Positions 13,990 to 62,010 are shown, counted from the stretch's first letter. The stretch is DNA of 64,000 bases from an uncultured virus (IMG/VR IMGVR_UViG_3300032053_000046) (IMGVR_UViG_3300032053_000046); one strand, 5' to 3'. The notes: generated by a model from the letters alone, not told the origin. A program made the numbers and translations.

Positions 13990-15741
13990 ATGTACAAGTT
14001 CAAGATCACAATAGATAAAACCAAAGTCACTGGTACAAATACAAATTTTGTGTATTTGTTCTCTGAACTTTGCTCCTCTATCCCTGCTGGATTCTGGACG
14101 CATGTGACCGATACCGTAACAGGTCTTGATATTAGATTCTTTGATACCAATGGTGTGACCGAACTCAAACGTGAGGTTGTACTATATTCAGCAGGTACGA
14201 GTAAGGTGGAGGCATGGGTACAGATACCTTCACTCGGTACGTCTGTGAATAAAGAGATCTGGTGTCAGTACGGTGGACCGACTGTAGCTAATAGTACGGC
14301 GGTGTGGTCAGATGTTCATACTGAGGCAGCATATCATCTTAACGGTCTTACGGACTCTTCAGGAAATGGTTGTGATGCTTCTATTGCTTCAGGCTCTCCA
14401 GCACCCGCTACTGGCAAGATAGGCAATGCTTATGTGTTCAACGATAGTAACCTTGATTATTTACAGGTCGGAACTCATGCCAATCTGAATTTAACTACTG
14501 TAGGTAGTCTTAGTGCCTGGGTCAAAGGTACACAGGCAGGTCATCATAGTGTAATTTTTGGAAAGGGTAACTACGGGATAGATCGCAATGGTTACACCTT
14601 TGATGCAATAGGTAATCTTAATCTTGAATTAGCAAATGCTAGTGGCTACGATTTCTTGGTTGGAGCCAATAATATAGGAGACGGTAACTGGCATTATGTA
14701 GTAGGTACTTGGGACTCAAGTACCATGAGACTATACGTAGATGGTATCGCTAGAGAGACTATGACTGAGACAGTGATTCCTGTATCCAATGTCTATGATC
14801 TTTTGATTGGTAAAGCTCCAGGATACCCTCAAACATTTAGGGGATATATCGACGAAGCTAGAATAAATTCTAGCTTATTAAATGCGAATTGGATAGCCAC
14901 CGAGTACGCCAACCAAAATGATCCTGCTACGTTCTCTTCCTCTGGATCTGAGGAAGTAGTTTCTTCAGACTTATCTATTAACATTTCAGACAATATTTCT
15001 GTAAGTGAGTTATTAAGCGAATCTATATTATCTTTATATTTACAGATTTTGGTTTCAGACAATATTTCTGTAAGTGAGTTATTAAGCGAATCTATATTAT
15101 CTTTATATTTACAGATTTTGGTTTCAGACAATATTTCGACTATAGAAGTAATTTCATTAGGTGGTTTGCCAGTATTTAATCCTTACATCTACATTCCCTA
15201 TTTGACGGGTAGTTATCTTCAGTATCTTCATTATCCCTACACCATAGAGATAGGTCATTTAAGTGGTGGTAATTTTGTAGTTGAAGATTCTGTTGTTATA
15301 AGTGACAATGACACTTATGATAGATGGCATAAATGGACAGGAACTCTTGGTCTAAAGTATCTCAGGGTAAGATGTTTCTCGTCTTTGATGGGTGGAGAAT
15401 ACTTTACCCCGCCTGCCAATTACAAACAGGTTTTGATATTTGATCCTTTTGAGTATCAAGAGACTATCGGGAATACTGAGAATATACAGATACTTACTGA
15501 GCCAGTTAATTTTGAGGCTTCAAGTGCGAAGTTAGGGCAAATAATCAAGACCTTCGAGTACGAAGAGTCCAGGGATTTTGAACAAGATGCTGTTTTATTT
15601 GAAGTAGGGACAGGATCTTTTGGACAGATAACAAAAACTTTTGAATACGAAGAGTCCAGGGATTTTGAGCAAGATATTATTCCTGCATTTCAGGTAGGCG
15701 CTGGGTATAGTGCTATTATGACTACTGTAAATATATCGTAA
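13990..15741 (+). CDS. DUF2341 + LamG/ConA-like domain virion appendage protein
   Basis: KITIDKTKV.GT.TNF, DIRFFD, EAWVQIPSL (DUF2341-like); WHYVVGTWD...LYVDG, F.G.IDEARI, WIATEY.NQ.DP (LamG_3-like). Confidence 0.85.
   Translation: MYKFKITIDKTKVTGTNTNFVYLFSELCSSIPAGFWTHVTDTVTGLDIRFFDTNGVTELKREVVLYSAGTSKVEAWVQIPSLGTSVNKEIWCQYGGPTVANSTAVWSDVHTEAAYHLNGLTDSSGNGCDASIASGSPAPATGKIGNAYVFNDSNLDYLQVGTHANLNLTTVGSLSAWVKGTQAGHHSVIFGKGNYGIDRNGYTFDAIGNLNLELANASGYDFLVGANNIGDGNWHYVVGTWDSSTMRLYVDGIARETMTETVIPVSNVYDLLIGKAPGYPQTFRGYIDEARINSSLLNANWIATEYANQNDPATFSSSGSEEVVSSDLSINISDNISVSELLSESILSLYLQILVSDNISVSELLSESILSLYLQILVSDNISTIEVISLGGLPVFNPYIYIPYLTGSYLQYLHYPYTIEIGHLSGGNFVVEDSVVISDNDTYDRWHKWTGTLGLKYLRVRCFSSLMGGEYFTPPANYKQVLIFDPFEYQETIGNTENIQILTEPVNFEASSAKLGQIIKTFEYEESRDFEQDAVLFEVGTGSFGQITKTFEYEESRDFEQDIIPAFQVGAGYSAIMTTVNIS
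14984..15137 (+). repeat. Perfect 69-bp tandem repeat (~2.2 copies)
   Basis: Unit starts at 14984, 15053, 15122; encodes SDNISVSELLSESILSLYLQILV. Confidence 0.95.
15535..15675 (+). repeat. Diverged intragenic repeat GQI(I/T)KTFEYEESRDFEQD x2
   Basis: Two copies 87 bp apart with mostly synonymous differences. Confidence 0.85.
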
Positions 15742-44611: not shown

Positions 44612-45025
44612 GGGGGTGATCTGGTTTTCGACAGAATGTATAAAGTATTGACTGCGTGTTGAGGAGGGTTCTCCCGGTTGGCCTCATAAATCGTCCGGGG
44701 GAGATGTTAGCTGCCGAGAAATCGACGGTCAACGCTGGTGTTGCTTTTGCGCTTCGCTTCGCGGCGATGTGTGATCTGGCGATGCCAGTTGTCAGCGTCG
44801 CCTAACTAAAGGTGACTAGCCCACACAAGTATCCGAGTGTGTGGGCGAAAGTAGGGTTAGGTGCAAGTGGGTGGTTTCATGACATAAAGCACCGAAAAAT
44901 ACCTGAAACTTGGTGGTAAGTATTTTGGCCTCAGTATACTTATCATGACACTTAACTGAGACTACACACGTAGATGTCAATATTGAGTATTTTCTGGACG
45001 GGGGTTCAATTCCCCCCCACCTCCA
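44612..45025 (+). ncRNA. ssrA: tmRNA
   Basis: 5' GGGGGTGATCTGGTTTTCGAC; 3' GGACGGGGG-TTCAATT-CCCCC..CACCTCCA; acceptor stem with G3-U alanine determinant; tag ORF 44713-44805 after TTAGCT; CCA not encoded. Confidence 0.93.
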
Positions 45026-45044
45026 CTTGTTTCTTTGTTTATTG

Positions 45045-50139: not shown

Positions 50140-52323
50140 ATGGCTGTAGGTAAAGATGTAAGACAAAAGGGATATGTCCACTGGTTTGCACCTGCAAAGC
50201 CAGACCCGAACTATCCTTCCGGTCAGGAGAGGAGATTGATAACTACTGATGACCAGTTACGGGCATTGGTTGCGGCTGCACATGCCTTTCAGCCTGAGAT
50301 GATAGCGATTGATACAGAAACAACAGGGTTGAATATAGAAAAGGAAAATATTGTTGGTATTTCAATGGCGATAAGCAGGACTCAGGCGTTCTATATGCCA
50401 GTGGGTCATTTCAACGGTCAGAATGTTTCAATGGACTTGGCTTTGCAGGTTGTGGCGGCTTTCTGTAGTCATGCAAAGAGGGTATTGTTTTACAATTACA
50501 GGTTTGACTACCGTTTCTTAAAGAAGGCGGGGTTGGGTAAGTTTTACGATCTTGAAAAGTTGCCATACTTCGATATGTCAGTTGTTGTTTACAATGCTGA
50601 CACAAATATAGCAATGCCAAGCCTGAAGTGGGCTGCACTACATTTCCTTGGGTGGAAGATGCGGACCTTCGAGGAGGTCATGCAGACTGAGGCTGACGTT
50701 GGAGATGCTGGTGGTGGGGACGTGCCGACAGAAGAGATCCCAGAGGCCGGGGAAGACTTTGGGAAGAAAACAGAAGCAGCTACCAACTTCGCTTACAATG
50801 ATCCGAACGAGTGCTTTGAGTATGCGTGTGATGATGTTCTTGCTCCATACAACTTGATTTATGTGATGTACAACATCTACAATGAATGTAAGTTTGTAAA
50901 CGACATAGACAATCAGGTTCTTGTTCCGTTAATGGTAATGGAAGATGACCCTTTTAAGATTAACAAAGACATGATTTTGAAGTTAGATGCAGATGTTACT
51001 AACACACTCGCAAATTTATCTGCGGAAATCTTTACTCAGTTTGGGTATAACTTTGGGTTAGGTTCCCCGAAGCAGGTCTTACAGGCTTTGGCAACTATTG
51101 GAATCACACCATCCAAGAGGACGAAATCAGGTAAGAGCGTATCAACAGATGAAGAGGCGTTAGAGGAGATACAAGACGAGCATCCTGTTATACCTTTGTT
51201 AATGAAGTATAAAAAATTGAAAAAGTTTGAGACAACATATTGTAAGCCGTTTTTGAATGAGTGGAGAGAGGATTTAGGAGGGGCAGTAAGATTTGCTTAT
51301 AAGTACAATGCAACACCCTCTGGTAGGTTTGCCTCTGGTTCTGATGCAAAGAACAAGTATTATTGTAAAATAAATGGGCAAGCTATTCCTAAGCCGCACT
51401 CACAGTATTATAATGCAGTGGTAGTGAATACACCAGTAGACTCCCCGGATTTGTTTTCATTTCTTGGGTATCATTTTGAGAAGGTAGATGGTAAGGAGGG
51501 GGTGGAAGGATGTTCCCTTGAGGAGAATGTTCGTGCTGCTTATATGCCTAATTATCCTTACCATCTACTTGTTTCAATAGATTATTCCTCACAAGAACTC
51601 AGGATTCCCGCTAATTTAGCAAATGAACCAGTATGGATTGATGCATTTACTACAGGTAAGGATGTTCATGTGTCAACGGCTATGACTTGTATATGTCATG
51701 GTGATGAGTCGTTGTATAACAGAGAGGTAAGGAAGACAGCGAAGGTGTTAAATTTTGGGAGCTTATATGGTGGGTCAGCCAAGTCATTTTCAAGGCAGCT
51801 TGGTATACCTGAGAATGAGGCACAGGTATTACTTGACAATTGGTGGGGTAATCTTTTAGGAATCCGTAGTTGGAGTAATGGTGTGAAGGCTTATGGGAGA
51901 CAGTACGGTGAAGTTTCAACATATTTTGGGCGTAAGAGAAGGGTGAGGTATTGGTACAGTTCTGGAAACCGTAGGTTGGAAGGATATGCAGATAGAACTG
52001 CTGTGAATCACTCTGTTCAAGGAACAGCAGCAGATATGATGAGAATAGCTTTAATAAAAATATATAACTCTTGTAGGAAGTGGATTGGAAAAGAAGACGG
52101 GATTTTTCTGAAATCGTCAATACATGATGAGATAAACTTCTCTATTGACGCAAGAGATCCTGTCAGGTTTACGGAGATGGTGTTGACTCTACAAGACATT
52201 ATGCAGATTAAGATACCGGAGTGGAAGGTGCCTATGCTTGCGGAGATTTCTATTGGAAGGTCATGGGGGACGATGTTTCCATTTACTTATACAAACGGAA
52301 TGTGGGTTCCGAAGAAAGGGTGA
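50140..52323 (+). CDS. polA: DNA polymerase family A with 3'-5' exonuclease
   Basis: AIDTETTGL, YACDD, SGRFAS, DYSSQELRI, RKTAKVLNFGSLYG, NHSVQGTAAD, IHDE. Confidence 0.96.
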   Translation: MAVGKDVRQKGYVHWFAPAKPDPNYPSGQERRLITTDDQLRALVAAAHAFQPEMIAIDTETTGLNIEKENIVGISMAISRTQAFYMPVGHFNGQNVSMDLALQVVAAFCSHAKRVLFYNYRFDYRFLKKAGLGKFYDLEKLPYFDMSVVVYNADTNIAMPSLKWAALHFLGWKMRTFEEVMQTEADVGDAGGGDVPTEEIPEAGEDFGKKTEAATNFAYNDPNECFEYACDDVLAPYNLIYVMYNIYNECKFVNDIDNQVLVPLMVMEDDPFKINKDMILKLDADVTNTLANLSAEIFTQFGYNFGLGSPKQVLQALATIGITPSKRTKSGKSVSTDEEALEEIQDEHPVIPLLMKYKKLKKFETTYCKPFLNEWREDLGGAVRFAYKYNATPSGRFASGSDAKNKYYCKINGQAIPKPHSQYYNAVVVNTPVDSPDLFSFLGYHFEKVDGKEGVEGCSLEENVRAAYMPNYPYHLLVSIDYSSQELRIPANLANEPVWIDAFTTGKDVHVSTAMTCICHGDESLYNREVRKTAKVLNFGSLYGGSAKSFSRQLGIPENEAQVLLDNWWGNLLGIRSWSNGVKAYGRQYGEVSTYFGRKRRVRYWYSSGNRRLEGYADRTAVNHSVQGTAADMMRIALIKIYNSCRKWIGKEDGIFLKSSIHDEINFSIDARDPVRFTEMVLTLQDIMQIKIPEWKVPMLAEISIGRSWGTMFPFTYTNGMWVPKKG

Positions 52324-54197: not shown

Positions 54198-54712
54198 TGG
54201 TTACGAAGGAAGATGTTTATGCTTGTAGGTATTGCCTTGGTACGAAGGAGTTCAAGATTGAAGACGATAATTTTGAAAAAATTAACGCCGAGGCGAGAGC
54301 AGCCCGGAAGTGTCTGGGATGTGGCCGGAGTTTGGTTGTAGCGGACATGATTAAGATTATTGGCCCATATATAATGATTGAGCCTATTCAAAAAGAAGTT
54401 AAAACAAAGGTAGGGTTGATTATCCCCTCTACGTGTTGGCGTGTGTGGAGAATTGGTAGGGTGGTCCGGCTTGGGGGTCCGTCTGTGTACTGGTCGCAAG
54501 GTGGGGGTAAAAGAAACTCGTTTGGTCAGCAGGTAGTGGAGGTGCCAAAGGGACGAATGTACCACTGTCCTAACGTGGTTGTGGGGGATATAGTGATGTT
54601 CCAGGACTTGGCGGTGCGTTCGATCAATGCCGGGTGCAATGAATATTTTTTGATTCATTACGATGATGTGGAGTTGAAGATGGACTCTATGGATGATCTA
54701 ATGCCTATGTAA
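54197..54712 (+). CDS. GroES-like co-chaperonin with N-terminal zinc finger
   Basis: IMIEP...KTKVGLIIP, G.VV.LG, VVVGDIVMF, YFLIHYDDV; N-terminal CRYC...CLGC. Confidence 0.8.
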   Translation: MVTKEDVYACRYCLGTKEFKIEDDNFEKINAEARAARKCLGCGRSLVVADMIKIIGPYIMIEPIQKEVKTKVGLIIPSTCWRVWRIGRVVRLGGPSVYWSQGGGKRNSFGQQVVEVPKGRMYHCPNVVVGDIVMFQDLAVRSINAGCNEYFLIHYDDVELKMDSMDDLMPM

Positions 54713-54713
54713 A

Positions 54714-54802
54714 TCAATCACTTACAACCCTCAAAAGTTTTTGAAGATTTCTATTGACAAGCATCCAAATAAGGTGTATATTAAAGGTGTAAGAGAGACA
54801 GG
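54714..54802 (+). promoter_or_regulatory. Early sigma70-type promoter cassette, copy 1
   Basis: TTGACA(54754)-17-TATATT; 62 bp identical to 61627-61688. Confidence 0.9.
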
Positions 54803-54853
54803 GGAGAGACGGGAAAGAGACGGGAAAGAGAAGAAAAAATAAGGGAGGTAAAG

Positions 54854-55114
54854 ATGTCAGAAGCGAAGAGAGTTACGGGGAAGATGAGTTACAAGTCGTA
54901 CAGGTGCCTCAAGTGTGGGGCGGTGAGTTCGCACCAGACTAATCACTATGGAGAGATTTACCCGCGTTGTGGTGAGTGTGGATGGAAGCGACCGTTTGAG
55001 AAAGGTCAGCCGCACCAGTGCTTAGATCCAGTGCCGGAGGGGTGGGATGTTCCTGAGCCGTGGAAGATGGTAAGGCTCAGAGACATTATGGAGTTGGTCA
55101 AAGATTTTTCGTGA
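54854..55114 (+). CDS. Zn-ribbon early protein
   Basis: GGGAGG RBS; CLKC...TNHYGEIY..CGEC. Confidence 0.75.
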   Translation: MSEAKRVTGKMSYKSYRCLKCGAVSSHQTNHYGEIYPRCGECGWKRPFEKGQPHQCLDPVPEGWDVPEPWKMVRLRDIMELVKDFS

Positions 55115-55120
55115 TTCTAC

Positions 55121-55149
55121 TTGACATTGCTTCTGGTTTGTGGTATATT
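55121..55149 (+). promoter_or_regulatory. Early sigma70-type promoter
   Basis: TTGACA-17-TATATT with TGn extension. Confidence 0.85.
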
Positions 55150-55190
55150 AGAGATGTAAGAGGGGAAAGAAGAAAAATTGGAGGTTTGGT

Positions 55191-55295
55191 GTGGGTGTTT
55201 TTCTTGTTTTGGTCTTAATGGTTTTTGTGGTTGTCTCTTTGGTTCGCGGGGCTGTCCGTGACTTCAAAGCCGGATACCATGAGGGGTCCAAATGA
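55191..55295 (+). CDS. 34-aa membrane peptide (not in ORF track)
   Basis: GGAGG RBS; MGVFLVLVLMVFVVVSLVRG... Confidence 0.55.
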   Translation: MGVFLVLVLMVFVVVSLVRGAVRDFKAGYHEGSK

Positions 55296-55471
55296 AGAAC
55301 ACCTTTGATCCTGTCAGTTACTTTCGTCCTTTCTTGTGTGGTACTCGAAGAGTGACCTATGAGGTGGGGCGGTACGTGGTTCGTGGTGCTACGGATGATC
55401 GGTTAATTGCCACTTATTTAGACAAGCAATCGGCTATCAATCACGCAGTCAATTCCAGCAATCGGAAGTGA
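55292..55471 (+). CDS. 59-aa hypothetical protein (not in ORF track)
   Basis: GAGGGG RBS, ATGA overlap; MKNTFDPVSYF... Confidence 0.55.
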   Translation: MKNTFDPVSYFRPFLCGTRRVTYEVGRYVVRGATDDRLIATYLDKQSAINHAVNSSNRK

Positions 55472-55479
55472 GGTTGTTT

Positions 55480-55644
55480 GTGACTGTGAAGAATCCTTCG
55501 TGGGCGGTGCAGGAAGAGTTACTGTCTGACGGGTCAAAAGCGTATAATGTGAGGAACGCTTACGCAGACATAACAATACATGCACGGAACCAAGAAGCTG
55601 CTATACAGATAGAGTATTACCTGAACGAGGGTTCTGTTGACTAA
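55480..55644 (+). CDS. 54-aa hypothetical protein (not in ORF track)
   Basis: GAGG RBS; MTVKNPSWAVQEELLSDGSKAYNV... Confidence 0.55.
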   Translation: MTVKNPSWAVQEELLSDGSKAYNVRNAYADITIHARNQEAAIQIEYYLNEGSVD

Positions 55645-55828
55645 GGGAGTGACGAAGTGGGAGGTACTTGTGATTTGTGATCAATACAAACGCGACCCAT
55701 TAAACTGTGATGGTTGCGTGCCAGTTTCGTATATACAGTGTGAACGTCCATCACCGTTGGTATTAACGGAGAAGGTAGAGGAGGATTACGAAGATTACGA
55801 CTCCCATCCTAATTCTGTGAATTGTTGA
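55637..55828 (+). CDS. Small Cys-containing hypothetical protein
   Basis: ORF follows the cluster; start uncertain. Confidence 0.45.
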   Translation: MTKGVTKWEVLVICDQYKRDPLNCDGCVPVSYIQCERPSPLVLTEKVEEDYEDYDSHPNSVNC

Positions 55829-55850
55829 AGATTTTTGTTGAAGACTTTTA

Positions 55851-55947
55851 TAGAATGGTGTGGAAATTCCGTCTAAGGGATGCGATCAAGCGACGGCGGT
55901 TCTTAGACAACAACCGTATCGGGCAGGTTGCCTTCCACACCATTTTA
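55851..55947 (+). ncRNA. Putative structured ncRNA, element 1
   Basis: 15-bp closing stem TAGAATGGTGTGGAA/TTCCACACCATTTTA with two inner hairpins. Confidence 0.6.
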
Positions 55948-55957
55948 CAGAAGTTTT

Positions 55958-56079
55958 TGGCAGTAGACAACGGCAAAGGCTTGATTTGAGAAGGATGGTT
56001 GTGGAGTACAGGGCTTGGTTACAGCAATGTAACTGAAGCATAAGTCTTTTGTTGACGATCAGGCTAACGTCTACTGCCA
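55958..56079 (+). ncRNA. Putative structured ncRNA, element 2
   Basis: 11-bp perfect closing stem TGGCAGTAGAC/GTCTACTGCCA; GGTTACA-gcaa-TGTAACT GNRA hairpin. Confidence 0.6.
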
Positions 56080-56090
56080 TTTTGTTCTTT

Positions 56091-56251
56091 GAGAGGTTGA
56101 CAGCTTACAGATCCTCTGACCGTAAATGGCATGTGGGTGATGAGCAAATTTTTCACAAGGCTAAAACAGTGGGAAAGTTGCAGATTTCCAACTGATAAAT
56201 CCTTGGCCCCTGCAAGGGCTTCGCTTCGCTCGGCGGTGTTGTCAACCTTTC
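56091..56251 (+). ncRNA. Putative structured ncRNA, element 3
   Basis: 14-bp closing stem GAGAGGTTGACAGC/GTTGTCAACCTTTC; multibranch interior. Confidence 0.6.
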
Positions 56252-56279
56252 TTTTTAACTTTTAAGAAAAGGATGTTGT

Positions 56280-56801
56280 ATGTCAACGAGAGCGGTGATG
56301 ATTGGTCTGCTTGTTGAGTCGGATGAGGACAAGAAGGGGCTTTACGGCGGTTTTGTTGAGTTGGGTTTTACTTCTCCGAAGATCATTCACCAGTTTAATA
56401 CTATGCCCGGAAAGGGTGGTGAAGGTGGACGAAGTGATGTTCTTGTTGAGTTTGATGACAAGGATATTCCGAAGCTCGCCATACATCCAATGCATCTTCA
56501 GGGTGGTTTTTCTTGGGATGATGATTATTTTCGGAATAATCGGGAGTTGATACCTTCCGAGTCTCTTCAGTATTTTCAAAAACAAGTGACTGAGGAGTCT
56601 CCGAAGGTAGAGGTTTTGAAGCCTGAGTGTAAGCTGCTTGAGGGTGATGGTAATGTGTTTGTTCTTGCCGGGAAGGTGGGTAAGACTCTCAATCGGGCTG
56701 GTCTTGGTGATAGGGCAGACGAGTTTTACGAGAGGTTGCCAAGATGTGACGGGTATCACGAGGCAATAAACCTGATGAGTGAGTACGTTGAAATCGTATA
56801 A
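56280..56801 (+). CDS. Two-domain hypothetical protein
   Basis: AAGGA RBS; C-terminal KPECKL..GDGNVF.LAG.V..TL.RAG...Y.EA......YV module common in phages. Confidence 0.7.
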   Translation: MSTRAVMIGLLVESDEDKKGLYGGFVELGFTSPKIIHQFNTMPGKGGEGGRSDVLVEFDDKDIPKLAIHPMHLQGGFSWDDDYFRNNRELIPSESLQYFQKQVTEESPKVEVLKPECKLLEGDGNVFVLAGKVGKTLNRAGLGDRADEFYERLPRCDGYHEAINLMSEYVEIV

Positions 56802-56802
56802 C

Positions 56803-56971
56803 AAGAGAAACAAGTAATAGGGTGTGGCAAAGGTGGGAACATTGTTGACTGCCATCTTTCGGGATGACTTTCAGCACTTTTTGAGGGAACCCTTTCTTGT
56901 CTGCAAAGTGCAAACCAGCTTCCGATAATGTAGGGAGTAAACGTGCAGAACCCTGTTATCTTGTTTCTTTT
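56803..56971 (+). ncRNA. Putative structured ncRNA, element 4
   Basis: ~20-bp closing stem AAGAGAAACAAG-TAATAGGGT/ACCCTGTTA-t-CTTGTTTCTTTT; UUCG hairpin; GCACTTT/AAAGTGC. Confidence 0.6.
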
Positions 56972-56990
56972 TTGATTTTGGAGGATTTAT

Positions 56991-57171
56991 GCTACTTCAT
57001 TGAATATTGAGATCGTTCACGTAGGAGCTTTACATCTTTGGACGGCTTCGGGCTAACAAAGTACAGGGAGCGTTATGCTCTGTACCTAAAAAAGCCCCTG
57101 TGTAACGGCAGATTATGGTAGACTGTTCTCTTTTCCGAGGATACCGTGCATGGAGTCTATCGTCGGGTAGC
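56991..57171 (+). ncRNA. Putative structured ncRNA, element 5
   Basis: GCTACTT/GGGTAGC ends; GGGCT/AGCCC, GTACAG/CTGTAC, TAGACT/AGTCTA stems. Confidence 0.45.
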
Positions 57172-57177
57172 TGAGAA

Positions 57178-57226
57178 AGGGGTGGAGGGAATGACCCTCT
57201 GCCCCTCACTTTTTCTTTTCTTTTTT
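57178..57226 (+). terminator. Rho-independent terminator
   Basis: AGGGGTGGAGGG-aatga-CCCTCTGCCCCT then T-rich run. Confidence 0.75.
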
Positions 57227-57263
57227 GTGAAATATTCGTATTGTTTTATAGGGAGGTAGGATT

Positions 57264-57653
57264 ATGAAGTTGATTCCAGTTAAATCTTCTAATGTTAGTT
57301 CTTTGGGATACATTGCAAGTAAGCAGGTACTCCATGCCGCGTTTACGAATGGTTCTTTGTACGAGTACCATGACGTGCCGGAGAACGTGTTTATCGAGTG
57401 TCTGGGTGCTCCTTCCGTGGGTTCGTACTTCGCTAAGAATGTGGCTCGGAAGTTTTCTTTTTTCAAGGTAGAGGATGGGACGTGCCGGGGGTGTGAGTTT
57501 CTTGATCTTGTGGTTAGTGATCAGTATGAAAATATCCGTATTCCTATGTGTAAGAAGTTCAAAATTGAAGTACCAAACCTTGCTCGTCTTGAGGATTGTG
57601 ATGAGCCTTTCTTTCGGGATAGGGTAGTGTGTAAAAAACCAGAAGGCGTATGA
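57264..57653 (+). CDS. KTSC-domain protein with Cys-rich C-terminal extension
   Basis: PVKSSNV.S.GY...L...F.NG..YEY.DVP......APSVGSYF.KNV. Confidence 0.88.
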   Translation: MKLIPVKSSNVSSLGYIASKQVLHAAFTNGSLYEYHDVPENVFIECLGAPSVGSYFAKNVARKFSFFKVEDGTCRGCEFLDLVVSDQYENIRIPMCKKFKIEVPNLARLEDCDEPFFRDRVVCKKPEGV

Positions 57654-60312: not shown

Positions 60313-60488
60313 CGGGATAGACGGCAAGGGTGACAGGGCTTGCTTTGTTGCCGGGGAATTTCCTTTACGTCATGGTTGTGGCAATGTAGGGCTATATTTA
60401 TCTTGTTGTTGCTGACCTTACATACACAAACCTTCATTGGTTGTTGTTAGTTGTTGTACTTAGGATTTCCCAACTTGCCGTCTTCCCG
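60313..60488 (+). ncRNA. Putative structured ncRNA with GUU-repeat tracts, element 6
   Basis: 15-bp closing stem CGGGA-t-AGACGGCAAG/CTTGCCGTCT-TCCCG; inner stems; TTGTTGTTG tracts. Confidence 0.65.
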
Positions 60489-61600: not shown

Positions 61601-61609
61601 CGTTTATTC

Positions 61610-61698
61610 TCAATCACTTACAGAGGTCAAAAGTTTTTGAAGATTTCTATTGACAAGCATCCAAATAAGGTGTATATTAAAGGTGTAAAAGAGACAGG
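61610..61698 (+). promoter_or_regulatory. Early sigma70-type promoter cassette, copy 2
   Basis: TTGACA(61650)-17-TATATT; near-identical to 54714-54802. Confidence 0.9.
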
Positions 61699-61737
61699 TG
61701 ATGAGAGAAAGAGAAACAAGAACTAAGGAGGTAGAGA

Positions 61738-62010
61738 ATGAATCTCAGAGCAAGTACAGTACAGGCGATTGGTGAAAAGGTGACAACGGTATGTGAGTTG
61801 GGTGGTGTTGGGCTTGGGTATATACTCCCAGAATCTTGTTGGGAGGATGGTAAGGTGCCAGTTGAGAATCTGGCGTTTCAGTCTGGTGGTAATGGATTCT
61901 ACTATCCTAAAAAGTTCAAACAAGTTCTTCGGGATGGTGGGCAAGGTTACAAAGATGTTGTCAATCGGTTGGTTTCTGGTGGTGGTGTTTCTCGTGCTTA
62001 TTCTCTTTAA
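61738..62010 (+). CDS. Hypothetical early protein
   Basis: AAGGAGG RBS downstream of promoter. Confidence 0.7.
   Translation: MNLRASTVQAIGEKVTTVCELGGVGLGYILPESCWEDGKVPVENLAFQSGGNGFYYPKKFKQVLRDGGQGYKDVVNRLVSGGGVSRAYSL

Follow-up and report, generated by a model that had tools for sequence, protein, structure and literature searches.

An earlier note on this DNA, made from the sequence alone, had read positions 55851-56251 as a tandem array of three unrelated structured RNAs, each closed by a long terminal stem; the question that the locus raises is whether such an array is there and, if so, whether it is the stems or the sequences enclosed by them that stand out. The window (the whole stretch of DNA analysed, 64,000 nt) is part of an uncultured T4-like myophage with a genome of ~167.7 kb (167,660 nt). 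Among the 80 window proteins searched against Pfam are a Gp23-type major capsid protein, a prohead protease, a tail sheath protein and baseplate proteins, and the window also encodes a DnaB-like helicase and a family A DNA polymerase; its + strand is G- and T-rich and bears nearly all of the genes. The genome record of the phage (G001), which has direct terminal repeats, is collinear with the window in reverse orientation and 100% identical to it over 55600-56500. The stretch was found in seven listed public DNA runs, all of them sediment metagenomes; the listing contained no RNA run. In the four runs that were compared no variants, joints or ends were present within the stretch, parts of which were uncovered in three of the four; since these runs are identical to the window wherever they cover it, strain variation gives no covariation signal. 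Cultured phages are distant, the polymerase being <27% identical to every listed match and all 3,288 matching records lying below 60%.

Several other features of this phage were seen in passing. Outside the window it encodes a TnpB/Cas12f-like protein (TNB domain, E 2.4e-18; L002:15521-16618, - strand) and a 90-aa RRM_1 RNA-binding protein (E 3e-22; L005:18664-18933, - strand), and inteins are present in its portal protein, in an AAA protein and in one further protein. Within the window, an exact stretch of 85 nt is repeated with a 69-nt offset at 14984-15137 (a tandem duplication, recovered as two overlapping blast rows) and falls inside a 583-aa Laminin_G_3 tail-fibre-like gene.

The gap that holds the array (55829-56279) is bounded by a 63-aa ORF and a 173-aa ORF, and is non-coding. 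Scored by a codon-usage log-odds trained on 51 window genes, the four ORFs on its + strand (44-58 aa) reach 0.004, -0.044, 0.131 and -0.048 per codon; all four fall below 0.14, the 5th percentile of real in-frame chunks of 58 codons, and the neighbouring ORFs score 0.19-0.37 per codon. A recoded gene is ruled out, because TAA, TAG and TGA each occur in all three frames. Searches of the gap against Pfam and PHROGs gave no match, and the low ORF scores, the ubiquitous stops and the empty searches together bear out the claim that no credible + strand gene is present here.

Three units lie back to back on the + strand of the gap, exactly where the earlier note had placed them and with closing helices of 15, 11 and 14 bp, in line with the 11-15 bp that it gave. 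Unit 1 (U1), which extends to 55841-55957, has a closing helix of 25 positions around a 67-nt interior; the helix is made of an inner 15 bp (55851-55947) and an outer 9 bp, with one A-C mismatch, and the outer extension to 55841-55957 makes U1 abut the next unit. A U-run (55954-55958) marks its 3′ edge. In a 2-kb context the mean pair probability is 0.97 for the inner and 0.96 for the outer part, and the fold of U1 is well defined, with the minimum free energy (MFE) structure accounting for 0.11 of the ensemble. Unit 2 (U2; 55958-56079) has a perfect 11-bp closing helix, with a pair probability of 0.78 in the same context, encloses a 100-nt irregular hairpin and is followed by UUUU (56080-56083). 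The single GNRA loop that had been described is present in U2 as a GCAA hairpin of a suboptimal fold, 2.3 kcal/mol above the MFE, and is missing from the MFE structure itself. Unit 3 (U3; 56091-56251) is closed by a 14-bp helix with two G-U pairs (pair probability 0.57 in a 2-kb context) around a 133-nt interior, and is followed by UUUUU (56252-56256), with the ribosome-binding site of the next gene ~20 nt further on. The terminal inverted-repeat arms of U1, U2 and U3 measure 25 nt (84% complementary), 11 nt (100%) and 12 nt (92%), respectively, and a fold of the whole gap reproduces the same three-domain partition. The linkers between the units are indeed U-rich, a property that is partly that of the T-rich + strand (T 0.30-0.33).

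The units are not copies of one another. A search for direct repeats among them returned only short chance matches (12-27 nt, 74-92% identity) that no two units have in common, the sole tandem repeat (13 nt, 2.2 copies) lies upstream of U1, and the covariance models of U1, U2 and U3 do not match each other's units. ARAGORN calls no tRNA in the window, and the tRNA family RF00005 is absent from the region even at E ≤ 10. These searches, together with the Rfam scan described below, agree with the earlier view that the units are not tRNAs, share no repeat and are not CRISPR; the lack of direct repeats across units equally disposes of a type III antitoxin (ToxI-type) repeat array.

The closing helices, hereafter clamps, exceed chance. 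The gap holds three non-overlapping long-range helices of ≤ -18 kcal/mol (spans of 60-220 nt), whereas 1000 shuffled versions of the gap with the same dinucleotides held 0.043 such helices on average, with two in 0.1% of them and three or more in none. Only 17 helices of this strength occur on the + strand across the 167,660-nt genome, three of which tile the ~400-nt gap. The whole units also fold better than their shuffled counterparts, with z-scores of -5.02 (U1), -4.32 (U2) and -3.08 (U3) on the + strand and of -4.31, -2.63 and -2.09 on the - strand; for the whole gap the values are -4.40 and -3.58, respectively. Such z-scores are unexceptional for this genome: RNALfold (SVM z-scores, folds of at least 70 nt) gives 143 non-redundant local folds with z ≤ -4 genome-wide, many of them inside genes, and in a background of 283 windows of 150 nt, taken from positions 1-21,300 only (mean z -0.43, sd 1.33), several windows fall below -4.

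To what extent do the enclosed sequences contribute? With the closing helices removed, each interior was compared on its own with 500 shuffles. On the + strand the interior of U1 gave a z-score of -1.55 (P 0.058), that of U2 -2.44 (P 0.016), that of U3 -0.37 (P 0.34) and that of a fourth unit (U4, see below) +0.27 (P 0.58); the corresponding values on the - strand were -1.28, -0.40, -0.70 and +0.76. Fisher's method over the four interior P values yields ~0.03 for the + strand and 0.24 for the - strand. The interiors thus fold mostly at the level expected by chance for their composition, with a modest strand-specific signal in U2. The folding excess over dinucleotide shuffles anticipated in the earlier note is therefore found for the whole units (-5.0, -4.3 and -3.1) and is close to chance for what they enclose, and its picture of structured RNAs with meaningful branched interiors is not upheld (z -1.55, -2.44 and -0.37 for U1 to U3). 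What stands up is an array of inverted repeats rather than of ornate RNAs, and to speak of three structured RNAs overstates what is present in the sequence.

The same design is found beyond the gap. Unit 4 (56803-56971, + strand) begins the gap that follows the 173-aa gene, and has a closing helix of ~21 bp, the outer 12 bp of which show a pair probability of 0.91 (2-kb context), a 126-nt interior and a U-run at its 3′ edge. Unit 5 (U5; 60313-60488, + strand) sits in another gene-free gap, for which the whole-gap z-score is only -1.59, and consists of a 15-bp closing helix with one bulge, then AUUUUU. A sixth unit, outside the window and on the - strand (L003:16876-16971), is 96 nt long, with a 12-bp helix followed by UUUUUU, again in a gene-free gap. 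As read off the sequence, all five units of the window have a run of at least four U at, or no more than 1 nt from, the 3′ end of the clamp; a scripted test for U-runs, which took unextended contiguous helices and left out U4, scored only U2 and U3. A U-run of this kind is present at 6.3% of random genome positions and at 7 of the 45 strong helices genome-wide. Sites that combine a stem with a run of five U are strand-biased, with 23 on the + strand and two on the - strand, and in the same scan a phage tRNA-Leu shows the stem-plus-U-run signature. No local canonical terminator hairpin precedes the U-tracts of the units, as judged from the sequence and the folds.

Two other places in the phage drew attention during the scans. 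L004:7261-8713 (- strand) contains a 1.1-kb stretch without an ORF by a crude call (another such 'gap' proved to be coding) and ends in a long-range helix of 16 bp (-28.6 kcal/mol); for this interval there was no Rfam match at E ≤ 1, and none in the closest relative. Inside the DNA polymerase gene, window positions 51482-51570 form a near-perfect inverted repeat of 16 bp (-24.3 kcal/mol) with 57 nt between its arms.

The units stand in what appears to be an early operon. A sigma-70-type early promoter lies at 55121-55149 on the + strand, with a perfect TTGACA-17-TATATT and a TG before the -10 element. This perfect promoter sequence occurs three times in the window, against 0.13 expected, and also three times in the whole phage genome, as found by a scan of its loci; the other two copies are at 54754 and 61650, and an AT-rich upstream element is common to all three. 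The copies at 54754 and 61650 are carried by an intergenic repeat of ~140 bp (54714-54854 and 61603-61743, ~91-94% identical), part of which is also present in the nearest relative (L011:15854-15905); this PeSL-like repeat is likely to be a recombination substrate for the shuffling of cassettes. Between 55149 and 56513 the scan found no promoter-like site on the + strand, and a TTGACA in the 5′ arm of U3 has no usable -10 element at 16-19 nt.

Downstream of the promoter, four small ORFs (34, 59, 58 and 63 aa; 55191-55828, + strand) have coding scores of 0.09-0.34 and belong to no known family. The first of these (34 aa, 55191-55295), directly behind the promoter, is strongly hydrophobic and has the coding score of 0.09; PHROGs matches weakly suggest a small membrane protein (E 0.08). 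The 173-aa orphan gene (56280-56801, + strand), between U3 and U4, has a coding score of 0.366. Its product has no Pfam match and no relative in viral contigs, and its sole homologue among 5.8 billion proteins is itself; its C-terminus matches phrog_1933, a family with no assigned function. A canonical intrinsic terminator, with a 12-bp stem, a 5-nt loop and a U-tract, is located at 57178-57206 on the + strand. In the simplest reading, a single early transcript would carry, in this order, the four small ORFs, U1 to U3, the 173-aa gene, U4 and the terminator. Of the proposed polycistronic small-RNA precursor, what is supported is the frame, that is, a perfect promoter at 55121, the lack of any other promoter-like site between it and the units and the terminator at 57178-57206.

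No family or homologue of the units was found. Over the whole window, 4227 Rfam models at their gathering cut-offs gave a single match, a tmRNA gene at 44612-45028, and at E ≤ 10 the intervals 55000-57000 and 56700-57400 gave only chance matches of 9.7-18.3 bits, against cut-offs of 41-105; no unit matches any Rfam family. The tmRNA gene itself scores 121 bits in Rfam, and ARAGORN reads in it an unusually long tag; the Rfam scan finds no tmRNA in the closest relative over the syntenic locus of 22 kb, where the corresponding interval is ~850 nt shorter. A blastn search of the region in 'distant' mode against phage and plasmid collections gave no match, and a 27-mer from the region had no match in viral contigs. 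The exact inverted-repeat pattern of U2 is absent from viral contigs and from genome contigs. That of U1 is absent from genome contigs and, in metagenome contigs, was found in its own contig and in one other, an unrelated (GGAAT)n satellite-like contig. Both scans require exact arms and so would miss diverged copies. Within the 167.7-kb genome, each unit is single-copy.

Relatives sought with the polymerase alone were not obtained; a polymerase homologue combined with an alignment led to 80 polymerase-related loci, among which only one belongs to a close phage, a 156.6-kb contig with a polymerase 73% identical. Single-sequence covariance models of U1 to U3 were searched against 88 sources totalling 1,576,651 bases (the window, the phage genome record and the 80 polymerase-related loci), as well as against five whole related records, and found only the units themselves. 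The search for homologues on which a covariation analysis was to rest thus came back empty in every collection searched. The closest relative is collinear with the window up to a GroES-like gene and again from a KTSC-domain gene, with different genes in between; it lacks all of the units, the whole cassette being missing. Because the relative has different genes at this place and no units, the units can be assigned to an exchangeable cassette within a hyperplastic region such as has been described for T4-type phages (PMC2839356). In the relative, a stop codon is immediately followed by a 12-bp stem that encloses a 48-nt loop and runs into UUUUUU (L011:19176-19247).

A number of known RNAs and elements were considered for the units and rejected. 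A CsrA-type sponge is not indicated, since GGA motifs are not enriched. For a bacterial Y RNA (YrlA-type), the Ro/TROVE domain PF05731 is absent from the phage genome at E ≤ 1, in a search that detected its positive controls, and Rfam has no match. A retron msr-msd is discounted because no reverse transcriptase domain was found among the 80 window proteins; in 124 further phage proteins, the only RT-related finding was a weak RVT_3 match in an RNase H protein. A group I or group II intron around the 173-aa ORF finds no Rfam match, and the KTSC gene downstream is complete in the relative. The resemblance of U1 and U2 to SRP-like, 6S-like or phi29 pRNA-like RNAs is by eye and receives no support from Rfam. 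Lastly, the 3′ arms of both U1 and U2 end in NCCA; U3 and U4 lack it, and CCA is not encoded in the phage tRNAs, which are located elsewhere in the genome and not near the units.

We tentatively favour, at rather less than even confidence, a reading of the units as untranslated, cis-acting RNA clamps of the + strand, which would combine a large-loop terminator or attenuator with a processing element of the size used by RNase III. The excess of clamps (three against a mean of 0.043), their high pair probabilities and the recurrence of the same partition in the whole-gap fold point this way, as do the U-runs at all five clamps of the window, the strand bias of 23 against two, the lack of a local canonical terminator hairpin ahead of the U-tracts, the better folding of the + than of the - strand relative to shuffles (for the units and for the whole gap), and the consensus promoter and canonical terminator that frame the operon. 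In such a scheme, the ~2.1-kb early operon, bounded by the promoter at 55121 and the terminator at 57178-57206, would contain the units, each with a clamp made of a long-range helix of 11-25 bp and a U-tract; the exact sequence of the 67-133 nt enclosed would be of little importance. Interiors close to chance and an absence of conservation agree with elements of which the stem and the U-tract alone matter. The large-loop hairpins would reduce the transcription that continues past the small early ORFs into the 173-aa gene, and the clamps, being of RNase III length, may be cut or protected, uncoupling the stability of the upstream and downstream mRNA and leaving compact stem-closed fragments after processing. 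RNase III has a helix minimum of ~11 bp and an ideal of ~22 bp, according to extracts of PMC3867540; the helices of U1 to U4 (25, 11, 14 and 21 bp) all reach the minimum, and those of U1 and U4 the ideal. The stem of the relative with its 48-nt loop and U6 after a stop codon indicates that large-loop terminator-like hairpins do occur in the lineage. What the DNA itself shows is inverted repeats in excess of chance, U-tracts, a gap that is non-coding and the frame of an operon; transcription of the units, termination or attenuation at them and their cleavage by RNase III are what we infer. Some observations sit less well with the reading of the units as cis-acting clamps. Three attenuators in series over 400 nt are not obviously economical, the terminator consensus scan calls no unit a terminator, the interior of U2 folds above chance on the + strand only (P 0.016), so that some interior function is possible, and the significant folding of the - strand as well makes a role at the level of DNA possible.

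In their would-be mode of action the units resemble intrinsic terminators and RNase III stems, and in their shape they resemble miniature inverted-repeat elements (MITEs). As in intrinsic terminators and attenuators, including the PeSL stem-loops covered in excerpts of PMC2839356, a U-tract comes directly after a stem on the strand that is transcribed. In common with the PeSL cassettes of T4-type phages, again as far as those excerpts go, the units are intergenic among small orphan early genes in a variable region, and strong sigma-70-like promoters with AT-rich upstream elements lie near them (PMC2839356). Unlike PeSL cassettes, the units are unique, not repeated, and have no built-in promoter; what is PeSL-like here is the repeat at 54714-54854 and 61603-61743. 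Unlike canonical terminators (loops of 3-8 nt, U-tract within 0-2 nt), the units have loops of 67-133 nt, and a terminator scan of 54600-57400 lists only 57178-57206. Efficient intrinsic terminators are not known to have loops nearly as large as 67-133 nt, which counts against the reading of the units as terminators. Processing stems for RNase III are known from sites in the early region of phage T7. In the manner of the RNase III stems of rRNA operons treated in part of PMC3867540, the 11-25 bp helices of the units flank segments of a polycistronic transcript between cistrons; the segments enclosed here are, in contrast, short and orphan.

The same stems could belong to discrete, stable, trans-acting small RNAs, protected by their terminal helix, released from the early transcript and acting as decoys, sponges or antisense RNAs, and we regard this as possible though doubtful. 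A terminal 5′/3′ helix is typical of stable RNAs, the phage tRNA-Leu gives the same stem-plus-U-run signature, U1 has a well-defined fold (the MFE structure at 0.11 of the ensemble) and a borderline interior (P 0.058), and the interior of U2 is strand-specific (z -2.44 on the + strand against -0.40 on the - strand); a phage protein with an RRM domain, of 90 aa, is encoded elsewhere. T4 offers a precedent in RNAC and RNAD, which, in the excerpts of PMC3014915 and PMC9697503, are small non-coding RNAs with no assigned role, from a T4-type phage, that lie, like the units, beside stable-RNA or variable genes; those two are late RNAs detected experimentally within a tRNA cluster, whereas the units are away from tRNAs and predicted only (PMC3014915; PMC9697503). 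The interiors of U3 and U4, however, fold at chance, there is no Rfam match at E ≤ 10 and no tRNA-like call, no homologue was found in the 1.58 Mb of the 88 sources or in five whole related records, and the closest relative lacks the cassette. The more specific proposals of the earlier note fare no better: processing in the manner of a tRNA array finds no tRNA-like feature in ARAGORN or Rfam, and against decoys or sponges for host proteins stand the frequency of GGA motifs (13.3 per kb here against 19.2 per kb in the window) and the absence of a Ro/TROVE gene from the phage genome. A compromise, which we consider unlikely, is an undescribed module in which a clamp and a U-tract surround ~70-150 nt of variable sequence, present in at least six genomic copies, which would both terminate transcription and, early in infection, release a family of exonuclease-resistant, stem-closed orphan RNAs with exposed interiors that bind host or defence factors.

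That the repeats matter as DNA, as relics of MITE-like insertions or of recombination in a hyperplastic region, and have no function in themselves as RNA, is likewise improbable. Terminal inverted repeats around unrelated, chance-level cores would be expected of such elements, the - strand folds significantly too, and the variable cassette is missing from the nearest relative and flanked by promoter repeats of the PeSL kind (PMC2839356). Correia elements and bacterial MITEs, as portrayed in parts of PMC2649163, PMC2229807 and PMC10969869, are of a similar make, ~100-160 bp long with terminal inverted repeats around a core; Correia elements, the model of a MITE with effects on transcripts too, are intergenic, gene-adjacent and co-transcribed, with hairpins that RNase III can bind and cut or be blocked by (PMC2649163, in part). 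MITEs are multi-copy, however, with shared repeats and target duplications, whereas the four units are single-copy in the 167.7-kb genome and mutually dissimilar, and the exact patterns of U1 and U2 are absent elsewhere; four different repeat sequences would call for as many transposases, the flanks show no clear target-site duplication (short shared TT/TA strings are indistinguishable from their T-rich composition), and the oriented U-tracts and the better + strand z-scores would be left unexplained. Least probable, in our estimate, is that the units are neutral, chance or recent inverted repeats in a decaying non-coding stretch. They have no conservation and no family, local folds with z ≤ -4 are common (143 in 167.7 kb), and chains of adjacent strong helices are also found in other phage loci, mostly more GC-rich, a comparison confounded by the differing GC content. 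Yet none of the 1000 shuffles gives three strong helices, the three helices tile the gap exactly, with no overlap, and the design of clamp plus U-tract recurs at three more gene-free places.

The array of clamped, untranslated modules in this early operon is real and statistically solid, and it is its function that is inferred. The element is so far confined to one uncultured lineage of sediment phage, and its present value is that of a flagged candidate. If discrete RNAs were released from the units, the very few phage small RNAs that lack a known role would gain new members. If, on the other hand, the clamps are working large-loop terminators or processing sites, the rules by which transcript ends are predicted in phage genomes would be widened, and the clamps would provide a handle on how orphan genes that have recently entered the hyperplastic early regions of T4-type phages are insulated there.
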